This document shows positions 6,411 to 13,849 of a stretch of 64,000 nucleotides of DNA, in pieces; within the stretch, counting starts at the first letter, position 1; each line of letters begins with the position of its first letter. A model generated the notes under the pieces. The model had not been told where the DNA came from, searched no databases, and was given only the letters and a program-made list of their open reading frames with translations. A program made the position numbers and the translations under genes. The stretch is from Nitrospinota bacterium (lineage in GTDB: Bacteria > Nitrospinota_A > UBA7883 > JACRGQ01), in the NCBI GenBank assembly GCA_016212275.1, contig JACRGR010000017.1, positions 25,316-89,315 of the forward strand. The letters run 5' to 3'.

Positions 6411-6808
6411 TGGGGGCGGGAGAAAGGGGATGAATAAAGCTTCTCCTCAACCCGAACATGCACACCAAGACGCACCATATCGTACTTGACATAATATACC
6501 TTATCGGAAGTCGCGGGCGTGGCATTCGAAATTGATGGCGTGGCGGTAATCAGAAATATCGCGAAGACTGCTATCTTTGCCAGCTCCCTTAAGCGGCCTG
6601 TCCTTCTGTCTTTCAACCACGCTTGGGTTAGGCGGTCGTCTTTAATGCCCAAGGCTTTTTCAATGTCGGTTGCCATCTCGATTGAAACTTTTGTGCGGCC
6701 TGTTTCAATGGCGGAAATGTAAACGATTCGTTTATGGAGTAATGCCGCTAACTGTTCTTGAGTGAGTCCTTTTTCAAGACGGAATTTTCTCATGGTCTCT
6801 GCAAACAT
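6398..6808 (-). CDS. XRE-family helix-turn-helix regulator (putative prophage repressor)
   Basis: The N-terminal HTH is 'LTQEQLAALLHKRIVYISAIETG' and a hydrophobic segment follows. The ORF reads across the left prophage repeat into flanking DNA. Confidence 0.55.
   Translation of the reverse strand: MFAETMRKFRLEKGLTQEQLAALLHKRIVYISAIETGRTKVSIEMATDIEKALGIKDDRLTQAWLKDRRTGRLRELAKIAVFAIFLITATPSISNATPATSDKVYYVKYDMVRLGVHVRVEEKLYSSPFSRPHQLI
6491..6512. repeat. Left copy of the 22-bp direct repeat (putative attL; dif-like core CATAA-TATACC-TTATC)
   Basis: It is an exact match to 13828–13849. Confidence 0.7.
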
Positions 6809-6836
6809 AATAACCCCTTCTGTTGATGCAAATAAA

Positions 6837-7316
6837 TTACCTCAATAGAAAATGTTTATCAAGGGTTTTTGTTAAGCCCACTATTTCTTCCGTCGAAGGT
6901 GGCTTTCTGTATCTCTTGAATGGGATGTTGGCCGCTTCAATATAAGTTGTTTTCACTTCGTCCTTTTTCTTTTGTGATTTTGAATTGTGGCTTGAATCAT
7001 CTAATTCAATTGCGGCAAGGACTAGAAAGTCTTTATTGCATATTACGAAATCAATGCTTCTCTGGCTGATTTTGTTCATGTGTTTTTGGCGGTCTTTGGT
7101 TGATCCTATTTCGATTAACTGCTTTAGGTCCACTTGCGCCAGAATTATATGGTCTGGTAGCGTTTTCTTGAGCAACCAAAAGAATTCTTGTTCTCTTTTG
7201 CTTAGCGGGTTCTTTTTTATTACTTCCAGTTCCTGCATCTTTTCTTTGCTTGTGAACTTTTTGATGAGTAATGCAATCACGCTCATCACTACAAGTAAGA
7301 AAAATGCACCTTTCAT
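6837..7316 (-). CDS. DUF2726-like (restriction-endonuclease-like/NERD-related) protein with an N-terminal TM segment
   Basis: The motif pattern is QVDL…IDFVICNKD…ELDDSSH. The gene is AT-rich and sits between the repressor-like gene and the divergent phage promoter region. Confidence 0.45.
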   Translation of the reverse strand: MKGAFFLLVVMSVIALLIKKFTSKEKMQELEVIKKNPLSKREQEFFWLLKKTLPDHIILAQVDLKQLIEIGSTKDRQKHMNKISQRSIDFVICNKDFLVLAAIELDDSSHNSKSQKKKDEVKTTYIEAANIPFKRYRKPPSTEEIVGLTKTLDKHFLLR

Positions 7317-7448
7317 GGGTTTGATAATTACCTATTAATTCTCCGAAAAATAGTTACAAATTTTACTTGACTTCTAAAATATACAACTCTTAAAATACTG
7401 TTTAAGCAAATTAATTAACATGAAATACTTTGAAATATAGGGGTGGTT

Positions 7449-7643
7449 ATGGCTTCTGGATTTGATGCCGGTGCGGTTCGCATGATTGTTTTTTCTCTCC
7501 GTCACGAAATGCCTATTTGTGATTCTGGTGGCGGTACTTTCACCGATGGCTACCACAAGGCTTTGGATGAAGTCCTAGAGCTTTTCGATATTTTCCGTAA
7601 CTCTGAAAAAAGAAAGGAGGTGGTCACCCAGGTTGATTCCTGA
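7449..7643 (+). CDS. Small hypothetical protein (first + strand gene of the prophage)
   Basis: An AGGGGTGG RBS lies 4 nt before the ATG. The product is 65 aa with no recognisable domain. Confidence 0.25.
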   Translation: MASGFDAGAVRMIVFSLRHEMPICDSGGGTFTDGYHKALDEVLELFDIFRNSEKRKEVVTQVDS

Positions 7644-7763
7644 TGGGGTACTCCCTCCCATAAAGACAATACGGGGGTAGTGAGTTCTTGGCGGTTTTTG
7701 ATACTTGACAAGCCAGCGACCGGAATGAATATGAGGGCGCGGCGCAAAAAGAAAGGGGCGATT

Positions 7764-8081
7764 ATGGCCTTTAAGAAAATTCAGTTGTTGGGGTGCGGCC
7801 AAATTAAAACGCACAAGACGGGCGATTACGACGGCAAGGACGGCAAGAAGGTGAAAACCGTTGACGTGGCTTTCCTGTACGACCGGGACGGGATATGCTT
7901 CCTCAACGACTTTCAGATCAGCGACCGGAACTACAACCCCGGCACGAAGGGGCTTGCATTCGCTGAAATCGGGCCGGAGTTGGTTGGCACCTCCGTTCTG
8001 TTCGTGGCGGAGGTCTCCGAATACGGCAACCGCATACTGCGCCTTGAACGTATGCCTGTAAAGGCCTCTGGGAACGTCTGA
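7764..8081 (+). CDS. Possible ssDNA-binding protein (gene V-like)
   Basis: The product is about 105 aa. There is a strong RBS (AAAGGGGCG) and the gene lies immediately upstream of the Rep gene. The assignment rests on size, position and a weak resemblance to an OB-fold. Confidence 0.35.
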   Translation: MAFKKIQLLGCGQIKTHKTGDYDGKDGKKVKTVDVAFLYDRDGICFLNDFQISDRNYNPGTKGLAFAEIGPELVGTSVLFVAEVSEYGNRILRLERMPVKASGNV

Positions 8082-8083
8082 CA

Positions 8084-11786: not shown

Positions 11787-11788
11787 AA

Positions 11789-12118
11789 ATGCAAGGGATT
11801 GTTGACACATTAGAAAACCTCTGGGCCGTCTTTGTCGGTTGGCTTGATTCCTTTTTTTCGTTCATGTGGGATGTTGGGCGGGATTTACTTCTTTGGGCTT
11901 TTGAATCCGCCTTGGGCGTTGCTGATGTGGCTTTTACATCTTTGATGACTTTAATTGGTTCGTGGAACACCATAACGCTTAACTCGTTATTGTTGTTAAT
12001 GCCTCCCGATGTCGCCACTGCTCTTTTTTATATCGGCATTCCCGATGCGATAGCTCTTTTGTCTGTCGCTTGGTCATACCGTTTGATTAAAGATTTTCTT
12101 ATCTCGGTTGTCCCTTGA
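11789..12118 (+). CDS. pVI-like minor coat protein (hydrophobic, ~110 aa)
   Basis: It lies between the pIII-like and pI-like genes and contains multiple TM segments. Confidence 0.4.
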   Translation: MQGIVDTLENLWAVFVGWLDSFFSFMWDVGRDLLLWAFESALGVADVAFTSLMTLIGSWNTITLNSLLLLMPPDVATALFYIGIPDAIALLSVAWSYRLIKDFLISVVP

Positions 12119-13284
12119 TTAATGCGTATGCCGGCCAGCCGGGTAGTGGAAAAACTTATTATGCCGTTGCCCGTGATTTAATCCCAAAGCTCATTAATAG
12201 CGAGTGCAAGATTTACCACTCTATTAAAGGTCTTAATCTGTATCGGATAGCTGTAGATTACGAACTTGACCTTTATAAACTTCGTGAGCGTGTTGAATTT
12301 CTAGGGGATGATGATACTCAAACACCTGATAAGGAAAAAATTCGCGGTCTCGCTGATCGTGTTGAATCCGGTGATATTCCTAATGGGTCGTATTTTCTCT
12401 TGGATGAACTTCAAGATGTATTCCCCGCAAAAGCCATAACCGCTGATGAAAGGATTACGCCTGAATGGATTCATCTAATTACTAATCACCGGCATCACAA
12501 TATAGATATGTCTTTCATGACACAGCACGTTGAATCAGTCGAAATTACTTGGCGGCGGCAAATTGAAATTTTGCGTGTCTTTCGTGGCCTTGGCTTTCTT
12601 GGGCTTAAGCGTAATTATACCTGTGGGTGTTATATACGTTCTGGCAACAAACAGGTTTATTACAAAGATGAAAAAGGACGGTATCAACCACGTTTCTACC
12701 CTTATTATCAGTCATTCGACTGCGAAGTGAGCGAAGACGATTTAAGGAAAAAATATTCCGGCAATACGATTTTCAAGCCTTGGTATTTTCTTGTAGCGGC
12801 TTCTCTTTTGTTCTGTTTCCTTTCTCTTCTTTATAAAGGTAATGGGACTGTTGCCCGTGCAATTATTGGAGGTGAAAATAATGCGGTTTCTTCTGGTTCT
12901 TCTCATTCCTCTATTTCTCCGGCTCCTGCCGTACCTGTTTCGGATTCTTCTGCATCTGCGCCGCGAATGGAAACGTCTACAGGGTCTTTAACATCTTCAC
13001 CATCTGCCAATGGCAACACTGAAAGAAAAGATGGCCCTCCGGTTCCTACTGTTCCTATTCTCGTGGGGTGTGTGGGTTTTGAAACGGATAATGATTCGGT
13101 CTATTATGCATCCGTTCAAGGTCCTGATGGTCGTTTTTATCGGTTTCGGTTTCCTTGTCTTGATTTGACCGTAGGGAAACCGTTTATTCTCTCCCTTGAT
13201 GAAGTTCGTATGCTTTCACTATCAGACCAGTTACAAGCTGGCCGTGAAACAATTGAAGATCGTTTAAGTTTGAATGCCCGTTAA
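12115..13284 (+). CDS. Zonula occludens toxin (Zot)/pI-like phage assembly ATPase
   Basis: The N-terminal Walker A is 'AGQPGSGKTYYAV'. A TM segment lies mid-protein and the C-terminus is Ser-rich. Confidence 0.8.
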   Translation: MINAYAGQPGSGKTYYAVARDLIPKLINSECKIYHSIKGLNLYRIAVDYELDLYKLRERVEFLGDDDTQTPDKEKIRGLADRVESGDIPNGSYFLLDELQDVFPAKAITADERITPEWIHLITNHRHHNIDMSFMTQHVESVEITWRRQIEILRVFRGLGFLGLKRNYTCGCYIRSGNKQVYYKDEKGRYQPRFYPYYQSFDCEVSEDDLRKKYSGNTIFKPWYFLVAASLLFCFLSLLYKGNGTVARAIIGGENNAVSSGSSHSSISPAPAVPVSDSSASAPRMETSTGSLTSSPSANGNTERKDGPPVPTVPILVGCVGFETDNDSVYYASVQGPDGRFYRFRFPCLDLTVGKPFILSLDEVRMLSLSDQLQAGRETIEDRLSLNAR

Positions 13285-13523
13285 ATAGGCAATGTCTTCT
13301 TTGTAGGTCCTAAAGCCTTTTTGTGGTTTTTTATTATCTCGAGGGTTTTGGATTGTGTCGTGAAAAGTTCCGGTAATCTCTCTTCTATGATACTTCTTAA
13401 AGGCCGGTTGTATTCAGGCTGGTAGATGATATTCGGGCAATCGTGAATCCTGTTTAAGCGAACCTCTGGCATATCGCGTATGTAATCTTTCACCAGTTCG
13501 ATTGTCCATGAAGCAAAGTCCAT
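13281..13523 (-). CDS. Hypothetical protein (80 aa)
   Basis: It is an ORF with no recognisable domain at the right end of the prophage. Confidence 0.25.
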   Translation of the reverse strand: MDFASWTIELVKDYIRDMPEVRLNRIHDCPNIIYQPEYNRPLRSIIEERLPELFTTQSKTLEIIKNHKKALGPTKKTLPI

Positions 13524-13538
13524 GGTGTTCCTTTCGGT

Positions 13539-13757
13539 CTATCGAGGAAAATGCTTGAATGGTTTCAGTCCTAGTTTCATATGTCTTTTGTCGCAACAGT
13601 CAATGCGATAGTCAAGTCTGCTGGTACAGGTTATCTCGTGTAATCTCCCGTCGCATTCTACACACGTTCGCCATTCGCCGCCGTTGGCGCACTTATGTCC
13701 GCCCGCTTTCGCTTGCGTGATTAAGAGTTCATCACTGCGGGGATGTTGTATTTTCAT
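13539..13757 (-). CDS. Small Cys-rich (putative Zn-binding) protein, copy A
   Basis: The pattern is HKCANGGEWRTCVECDGRLHEITC…DCCDKRH. The core is near-identical to the ORF at 48448–48669. Confidence 0.45.
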   Translation of the reverse strand: MKIQHPRSDELLITQAKAGGHKCANGGEWRTCVECDGRLHEITCTSRLDYRIDCCDKRHMKLGLKPFKHFPR

Positions 13758-13827
13758 GTATCTTTTGAAAAGTGAGGTTTTCTTTTAAGGCTTTGATAAG
13801 TAAAGAAAATCATAAAAATAAATAAAC

Positions 13828-13849
13828 AATAATATACCTTATCGGAAGT
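13828..13849. repeat. Right copy of the 22-bp direct repeat (putative attR)
   Basis: It is an exact match to 6491–6512. The 3' flank is similar (g.gggcgt). Confidence 0.7.

Follow-up and report, generated by a model that had tools for sequence, protein, structure and literature searches.

A divergent, apparently intact inovirus prophage, most probably integrated at dif, in a Nitrospinota bacterium

Known dif-integrating phages and the ends of the element

The filamentous phages CTXφ and VGJφ integrate at dif through the host recombinases XerC and XerD (XerCD) and leave a functional dif behind (PMC9226527, PMC10011098), and inoviruses as a group have been linked to almost every bacterial phylum (Roux et al. 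2019, PMC6813254). Inoviruses that reside at dif and carry neither a secretin gene nor an integrase gene are already known, namely CTXφ, VGJφ, the Xanthomonas phages and a prophage of Cupriavidus. To our knowledge, a good understanding of filamentous phages that integrate at dif is limited to Vibrio, Xanthomonas, Neisseria and a few further proteobacteria. Here we describe a locus in a stretch of 64,000 nucleotides (the window) of contig JACRGR010000017.1 from a Nitrospinota bacterium: a low-GC block that we read as the apparently intact prophage of a very divergent inovirus, a filamentous phage with single-stranded DNA (ssDNA), most probably integrated at the dif of its host. We put the probability of this reading at about 0.8. 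The element would accordingly be a dif-integrating inovirus and one of the integrative mobile elements that exploit Xer (IMEX); that it is active, leaves through a host secretin and depends on Xer recombination is what we infer.

An earlier note, made from the sequence alone, had proposed an AT-rich block of about 7.4 kb at 6491–13849, inserted directly behind a kinase gene. The low GC content is real (0.445 in the element, 0.551 in the left flank and 0.584 in the right flank), and those coordinates coincide with an exact 22-bp direct repeat, ATAATATACCTTATCGGAAGTC (repeat family D13), which delimits the block at 6491–6512 and 13829–13850. The two copies are identical at all 22 of 22 positions, and the interior together with one copy makes an element of 7,338 bp. 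The kinase is likewise as described, a hybrid histidine kinase of 1,087 amino acids (aa) whose gene ends at 6410. On the right, gltD (13929–15401) and gltB lie on the strand opposite to the kinase gene, so that the host genes converge on the site. The 17-mer TATACCTTATCGGAAGT, searched at up to 3 mismatches through the whole 64-kb window, occurs in the two repeats only, with 0.09 matches expected by chance.

The left repeat copy is part of a 28-bp Xer/dif-type site, attL (6484–6511), which reads ACTTGACATAA, TATACC, TTATCGGAAGT and, on the other strand, which is the canonical orientation, ACTTCCGATAA-GGTATA-TTATGTCAAGT. Known Xer sites have an 11-6/8-11 architecture (PMC6744903), and attL is an 11-6-11 quasi-palindrome in which ACTTGACATAA is the XerD arm read in reverse and TTATCGGAAGT the XerC arm; at up to 3 mismatches it is the single such site in the window. 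The XerD arm follows a widely conserved pattern, TTATGTnAAnT, with TTATGTTAAAT in E. coli and TTATGTAAACT in B. subtilis, where the XerC arm is ACTTCCTAGAA; the attL arm matches this pattern. At the other end, the hybrid site attR (13822–13849) reads ATAAACAATAA, TATACC, TTATCGGAAGT: it keeps the XerC arm (11/11) and the centre (6/6), and its XerD arm is degenerate (5/11). The earlier proposal that the phage dispenses with an integrase and uses the host XerCD instead is strongly supported by this canonical 11-6-11 anatomy, as far as the form of a site can speak for the enzymes that act on it.

To see how widely this site occurs, we scanned JGI (Joint Genome Institute) metagenomes for the two attL arms with 9–10 free bases between them. 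Both arms were found in 117 contigs (L059–L175), 111 of them with the 28-bp spacing. The first four free positions are nearly fixed (T in 91%, A in 94%, A in 94% and T in 96%), and the next five vary, with TCCACC as the commonest centre (38 occurrences). The sites are single in each contig, and the median GC content of the contigs is 0.68. Conserved arms around a centre that varies with the taxon are the signature of dif, so attL belongs to a widespread family of chromosomal dif sites rather than being a phage-specific att core; in IMG/VR the same pattern gave only two unrelated matches. The insertion site is therefore most probably the dif of the host chromosome, judged from this pattern.

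Strand polarity around the site fits a location at the replication terminus, on the assumption that the motif GGGNAGGG, an E. coli-type KOPS (FtsK-orienting polar sequence), plays the same role in this phylum. On the left side of the site the plus strand has 2 copies and the minus strand 0; right of the prophage the counts are 3 and 16 (binomial p = 0.004), and at 52–60 kb 6 of 6 copies are on the minus strand despite a positive local GC skew. The polarity would thus point to the site from the right and, on few data, from the left too. This strand bias suggests that an FtsK-orienting polarity exists in the lineage. Some G-rich 7-mers, AAGGGGA for example, show the same strand flip; they were picked after the fact. 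GC skew itself is positive on the left, negative for about 20 kb on the right and positive again at 48–64 kb.

Based on these sites, we propose the following scheme. The double-stranded replicative form would carry attP, ACTTCCGATAA-GGTATA-TTATTGTTTAT, and the host XerC and XerD would recombine it with dif. Integration would recreate a working dif at attL, such that chromosome dimers could still be resolved, and the poor XerD arm at attR would shield the prophage from FtsK-activated excision, an effect demonstrated in TLCφ and suggested for the gonococcal island. XerC could catalyse the first strand exchange, as in CTXφ and VGJφ, in which case replication would resolve the Holliday junction; alternatively, XerD could do so together with a further activator, as in TLCφ. 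After induction, the replication initiator (Rep) would nick the plus-strand origin, the ssDNA would be coated, and the pI/Zot protein would assemble virions at the inner membrane for extrusion through a host secretin. The last step is proposed because the element encodes no pIV; secretin-less inoviruses have been reported to rely on a host secretin (PMC10011098).

In gene content the element recalls CTXφ and VGJφ, which are likewise small filamentous phages with a Zot/pI ATPase and an XRE-type repressor and with neither a pIV secretin nor an integrase. RstA of CTXφ is a Rep_trans-type initiator. Beyond the level of protein families, however, no sequence relationship between these phages and the element is detectable, and the attachment sites differ: CTXφ uses a folded ssDNA as attP and the centre of VGJφ matches dif only on the XerC side, whereas the centre of the element is fully identical and its XerD arm is degenerate. 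In this respect it is closer to TLCφ and the gonococcal genetic island of Neisseria, which combine an intact XerC arm and a dif-matching centre with a non-canonical XerD arm (PMC6744903, PMC9226527), the arm of the gonococcal island being partly altered. Both are also bounded by dif on one side and a degenerate site on the other, with an XRE-type helix-turn-helix (HTH) gene next to attP, and in both the poor XerD arm limits FtsK-driven excision (PMC6744903, PMC9226527). TLCφ is a satellite without structural genes, whereas our element has a full virion and assembly module; and TLCφ requires XafT, a protein combining an HTH with DUF3653, whose homologues have been reported in β- and γ-proteobacteria, groups to which the present host does not belong. 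Going by the site and gene comparison, the element is TLCφ-type in att anatomy only, not in mechanism.

Two further systems are close in other ways. Among GenBank phage records, the closest Zot proteins are those of the Ralstonia phages RSM1, RSM3 and RS603, 26–28% identical over the 223-aa N-terminal ATPase domain, and their genomes are similar in size to the element. The Cupriavidus taiwanensis STM 6018 prophage resembles it in having a Rep_trans-type pII, no pIV, no recombinase, a putative dif and dif-like ends (PMC10011098); it differs in its betaproteobacterial host, in a Rep that matches the Pfam model directly and in having no pilin or DUF2726 cargo described.

Replication, virion and assembly genes

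Every gene of the inovirus-like module listed in the earlier note is present, and the Zot/pI assembly ATPase (389 aa; 12115–13284, plus strand) is unambiguous: it matches PF05707 at E 3.1e-24 and phrog_197 at E 1.2e-37, carries the Walker A motif GQPGSGKT, and has one transmembrane (TM) segment at aa 222–240 followed by a periplasmic C-terminal part. It is identical to HZA04_02575 of NCBI, a hypothetical protein from a 146-kb contig of a MAG (metagenome-assembled genome) named “Nitrospinae bacterium,” and a word-indexed search of 5.8 billion proteins returned no other homologue at E < 1e-5; IMG/VR holds no relative of it either.

Rep (411 aa; 8162–9397, plus strand, in an open reading frame [ORF] that opens at 8084) matches no model of Pfam, PHROG or NCBIfam, even at E up to 10, and no sequence in the PDB, and none of 50,697 GenBank phage records contains a match; nor does IMG/VR hold any member of its clade. 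A word-indexed search with Rep returned the identical protein and one other, P0002, that is 27% identical. Exhaustive phmmer searching of 1.8 billion representatives yielded 313 homologues. Aligning 60 of these shows Y218, K220 and E252 to be invariant, with R164, D166, D170 and R250 nearly so, and gives the consensus motifs VSRxDxxxD, RxYDKxxEI and VWRxEFQ (RxD..D / YDK / RxE). Of the 60, 17 match Rep_trans (PF02486) and 6 match Phage_CRI. The AlphaFold2 model built on that alignment has a pLDDT (predicted local distance difference test) score of 85, and its best match among solved structures in Foldseek is 4CIJ, a Rep_trans rolling-circle initiator (E 1.3e-8, probability 1.0, TM-score 0.53–0.55 normalised to the target), with TBP-like folds as the next matches. 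Its best viral fold match is “GST REP [Inoviridae sp.]” from an uncultured member of the Inoviridae (E 1.6e-11). Taking together the transitive homology, the conserved motifs and the predicted fold, we assign Rep to the Rep_trans superfamily of rolling-circle initiators, although the family model itself is not matched; the label “Rep_trans-like” of the earlier note thus stands for the superfamily and does not stand as a direct match to the family model. This Rep clade escapes current profile libraries altogether. We also considered the homologues P0002, P0004, P0006, P0007 and P0009 as phage relatives and rejected them, as their contexts are not those of inoviruses; P0002, P0006 and P0009 sit in small elements with tyrosine integrases of their own.

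Downstream of Rep, the first gene (9394–9516, plus strand) encodes a 40-aa protein with a single TM segment, a candidate minor virion or assembly protein with a 52% identical homologue at the same position in the relative L052 described below. It is followed by the precursor of the major coat protein (63 aa; 9543–9734, plus strand, in an ORF that opens at 9513), in which a 25-aa signal peptide ending in FVGAAEA precedes a mature part of 38 aa that runs from an acidic N-terminus through a hydrophobic core to a basic C-terminus. The coat with signal peptide and the small hydrophobic ORFs predicted earlier are found here. The profile evidence for the coat call is weak (Phage_Coat_B at E 0.007 and 16.8 bits, against a cutoff of 23.5 bits; phrog_2374 at 5e-4) and its anatomy is right; the gene is also called in L001, a contig of an independent assembly of the same sample. 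Profile searching, which had been suggested as a check of the module, thus places Zot well above background, leaves the coat below the cutoff and gives no direct match for Rep.

The pIII-like adsorption protein (469 aa; 10377–11786, plus strand) has the predicted build of a signal peptide, an N-terminal domain, a linker of 26 Gly-Ser-Thr (G-S-T) triplets, encoded at 11103–11336, and a C-terminal TM anchor. Its collagen and tail-fibre matches were rejected as an artefact of the Gly-X-Y periodicity of the linker. At the DNA level the linker is a tandem array with a 9-nt period (11101–11339), which short-read assemblies cannot cross, and the G-S-T copy number in the window may accordingly be uncertain. 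Just before this gene lies a conserved 63-aa ORF (10189–10380, plus strand), whose homologue in the corresponding place in L052 is 37% identical (E 7e-5). The pVI-like minor coat protein (109 aa; 11789–12118, plus strand), another part of the original proposal, matches the “Ace-like” phrog_306 at E 3e-7 and, under the cutoff, DUF2523 at E 0.0024, and has a TM segment.

All the structural proteins have a membrane topology in keeping with that of inoviruses. The size of 7,338 bp and the order of replication, coat(s), pIII-like, pVI-like and pI genes, an order also found in L052, fit an inovirus genome of about 5–15 kb. The core ORFs are all open and tightly packed, with overlapping start and stop codons. 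As the earlier note stated, no secretin is encoded, and no recombinase: profile searches of the block gave no secretin match in any ORF and no Phage_integrase, transposase or resolvase match in any ORF of 6398–13757.

At the left end, the divergent repressor-like HTH gene expected there is an XRE/HTH_3 gene (136 aa; 6398–6808, minus strand; HTH_3 at E 1.3e-13) whose product has one TM segment at aa 76–94 and matches the RstR family at E 1.7e-5, under the cutoff. Its ORF crosses attL: in the prophage, host DNA supplies the last 30 codons, and a different tail of 24 residues would be read in the circular form. Next to it lies a gene for a DUF2726 protein (6837–7316, minus strand; PF10881 at E 3.3e-25) with an N-terminal TM segment; DUF2726 has been placed in the PD-(D/E)XK nuclease-like superfamily (PMC3424549). 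The divergent intergenic region contains a promoter-like TTGACT-18-TAAAAT (7367–7396, plus strand) that agrees with the consensus at 10 of 12 positions, a consensus match only. The first rightward gene is a 64-aa ORF (7449–7643, plus strand), also called in L001 and without a family match.

A 105-aa ORF just upstream of Rep (7764–8081, plus strand) has no family match and is a candidate for the ssDNA-binding (pV-like) protein, from its position and its all-beta prediction; its AlphaFold2 model, made without an alignment, has a pLDDT of 49 and is unusable, and it is only weakly similar to the ORF that takes this position in L052 (E 0.006). At the right end are two leftward ORFs: orf80 (80 aa; 13281–13523, minus strand), which has no family match, and orf72 (72 aa, Cys-rich; 13539–13757, minus strand), which adjoins attP and has only a sub-threshold match to YjhX_toxin (E 0.036). 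In the circular form the minus-strand order would be DUF2726, HTH, attP, orf72 and orf80; upon integration, orf72 and orf80 are cut off from the HTH gene, which in the circle is located upstream of them on the same strand. PADLOC and PHROG searches with the small and cargo ORFs gave generic HTH matches only. The DUF2726 gene, the 63-aa ORF before the pIII-like gene, the two right-end ORFs and a pilin gene discussed below are additions to the gene list of the earlier note.

Relatives of the element and alternative readings

The only real, though partial, relative that we found is L052 (Logan, SRR22388063), which comes from a different sample and was reached through Rep. Its order is host genes, a dif-like site, an HTH gene on the minus strand, small ORFs, a 111-aa ORF, Rep, a 39-aa ORF, a 40-aa coat-like ORF, a 50-aa ORF and a truncated pIII-like gene. 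Five of its proteins are significantly similar to those of the element: Rep (40% identical), the 39-aa ORF (52%), the 50-aa ORF (37%), the HTH protein (35%) and the pIII-like protein, which is 42% identical over a 91-aa stretch of the N-terminal domain. The HTH ORF of L052 likewise reads through its site, and neither a pilin gene nor a DUF2726 gene is present in L052. The dif-like site of L052 (3328–3356; ACTTCCGATAAGATATATTACTGTCAAGT) is inverted relative to the phage genes when compared with the window and is longer by a single base, located within the XerD arm or adjacent to it; read at face value, this would imply an inverted attP in a close relative.

One of the 117 JGI contigs carrying the dif family, L067 (Ga0315281_10024283, 1–2977), offers a second comparison. 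It holds a complete dif, ACTTGACATAATATCCCTTATCGGAAGT, and 2.65 kb downstream a hybrid site consisting of GAGGTCGATAA, TATCCC and TTATCGGAAGT. Between the two sites lie small ORFs, a Rep homologue that is 29% identical (E 3e-23) and, directly against dif, an HTH-like gene; a homologue of DUF2726 is found just past the hybrid site. L067 has the look of a satellite-type IMEX belonging to the same family, perhaps as part of a tandem array.

The same-sample comparison for the locus was made with an independent Logan assembly of run SRR12113407. Its sequence equals the window without a single difference over two contigs, L001 (151–11130) and L051 (11274–13623); the end of L001 and the start of L051 both fall within the pIII G-S-T repeat. 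The other end of L051, at 13623, lies inside orf72, where no repeat is visible, and could reflect strain variation or low coverage.

Several observations weigh against an intact phage integrated at dif, or weaken parts of that reading. The pIII gene is assigned by its architecture only, the coat and pVI matches fall under curated cutoffs, and the 105-aa ORF is no more than a candidate for the ssDNA-binding protein. Folding of 7317–7763 as ssDNA revealed no origin or packaging hairpin (z = 0.82, no better than shuffled sequences). None of the ORFs of the element, L052 or L067 gave a DUF3653 match, despite the TLCφ-like attP. As for the terminus, the window extends just 6.5 kb to the left of the site, so that the flip in motif polarity rests there on the 2:0 count, and GC skew is a weak marker, which we judged unreliable because it partly tracks gene orientation. 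The same-sample assembly runs unbroken from host to phage across attL, and the predicted circular attP junction has no match in IMG/VR, a result that is uninformative given that the collections searched hold no related genome. Neither the host species nor close relatives appear among 185,579 GTDB species representatives scanned with GltD as the seed, where the best GltD sharing the search peptides was 58% identical and from Vibrio; an exact look-up of GltD for strains with an empty site likewise found none on record.

Some of these points suit an alternative that we regard as unlikely without being negligible, namely that the block is a cryptic or domesticated remnant of an inovirus, integrated once by Xer, that has lost replication and particle formation and is kept in place because the degenerate XerD arm blocks excision. 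Such a remnant would explain why neither a circular junction nor an episomal copy is seen in IMG/VR, why the same-sample assembly crosses attL without a branch, why the lineage is absent from IMG/VR and the GenBank phages, and why no origin structure is recognised. Against it, the core ORFs are open and packed to the point of overlapping start and stop codons, Rep retains its catalytic residues and Zot its Walker A motif, the 22-bp repeat is perfect and so shows no sign of decay, and there has been no drift of the GC content toward the host value.

A more improbable alternative keeps the phage and changes the enzyme: a recombinase other than the host XerCD, encoded elsewhere or by a helper, would have integrated the element, and the resemblance of the repeat to dif would be incidental. 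Many homologues in the Rep clade do sit in small elements with their own tyrosine integrases, and the window contains an integrase gene 28 kb away. That gene, however, belongs to a separate island at tRNA-Gly, and an incidental resemblance accords poorly with a full 11-6-11 Xer architecture that is conserved, with a variable centre, in 117 unrelated contigs, and with a left copy that is complete while the right one differs by exactly one binding arm. Least probable is a non-viral origin as a small integrative plasmid-like or pilus-related island with a Zot-family ATPase and a pilin, for which one may cite the pilin gene, the assignment of pIII by build and the fact that Rep_trans initiators are also plasmid proteins, since the order of Rep, small TM ORFs, coat, pIII-like, pVI-like and Zot genes within 7.3 kb is an inovirus signature, L052 keeps the phage core without the pilin, and the best viral fold matches of Rep are in the Inoviridae.

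Cargo, neighbouring DNA and significance

The pilin gene encodes an MshA-type type IV prepilin of 124 aa (9830–10204, plus strand; N_methyl, PF07963, at E 1e-8; TIGR02532 at E 4.6e-8). It begins with the class III signal MKNVLNSNGG, after which the mature protein would start as FTLIELVVV, and has two Cys in its C-terminal half. The leader is short and basic, with Gly at −1, Phe at +1, Glu at +5 and a hydrophobic alpha-1 helix after it. Of its 6,143 homologues, the closest are pilins of about 122 aa that are 40–60% identical, some of them labelled MshA. Those that we looked up lie in chromosomal type IV pilus clusters with PilC-like platform genes, minor pilins and PglL-like ligases; homologues on contigs of about 7.4–7.6 kb, considered as phage genomes, were rejected because they too belong to chromosomal clusters of this kind. 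No tblastn match to the pilin was found in the 50,697 phage records, and text searches of the literature found no description of an inovirus-borne pilin, which is not proof of novelty. Because the pilin and DUF2726 genes are both absent from L052, we regard them as cargo rather than core. Type IV pili are common inovirus receptors, and the secretins of type IV pilus systems can act as exit channels. Speculatively, the most likely role of the phage pilin would be to modify or poison the type IV pilus of the host, or to help in docking to its pilus or secretin machinery; a role in superinfection exclusion is also plausible, again as speculation.

Farther right, the window contains a second low-GC island (41696–46737; GC 0.47–0.51) adjoining tRNA-Glu and tRNA-Gly genes. 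It carries a tyrosine integrase (42171–43421; E 4.6e-21), a D12-class adenine methyltransferase (43393–44286) and two further ORFs without a family match, and is probably a separate integrative element at tRNA-Gly. Beyond it, a 608-aa ORF (49855–51681) has both HNH endonuclease domains and a domain named “conserved phage C-terminus” (Phg_2220_C, E 1.1e-20), suggesting more phage-derived DNA downstream of the tRNA island.

Given the phylum-wide association of inoviruses reported by Roux et al. (2019), the element is of an expected type. What is new is a Rep that has diverged beyond the profile libraries, the single partial relative in the collections searched, the poorly studied host lineage, the TLCφ-like att anatomy without XafT, and the pilin cargo. 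A bolder proposal, which we consider doubtful, is that the element, L052 and L067 form a non-proteobacterial IMEX family with a TLCφ-type attP, no XafT and an undescribed Xer activation factor, and that the pilin is functional in the infection cycle rather than a passenger, whether by remodelling the receptor, by excluding superinfection or by tethering the growing filament to the secretin of the host type IV pilus. Candidates for such a factor are the membrane-anchored XRE protein whose gene spans attP and the 72-aa and 80-aa ORFs. The exchange of the HTH tail upon integration, together with the separation of orf72 and orf80 from the HTH gene, may or may not have a functional consequence.

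The locus provides a clean, fully delimited example of a dif-integrating filamentous phage in a poorly studied lineage, in a MAG labelled Nitrospinae. The pattern ACTTGACATAA-N6-TTATCGGAAGT, widespread in metagenomic contigs of mostly high GC content, offers a means of locating termini and additional IMEXs in MAGs of this kind. The TLCφ-like attP without XafT and the pilin cargo are leads, respectively, on how Xer recombination is activated and on the interplay between secretin-less inoviruses and type IV pili.

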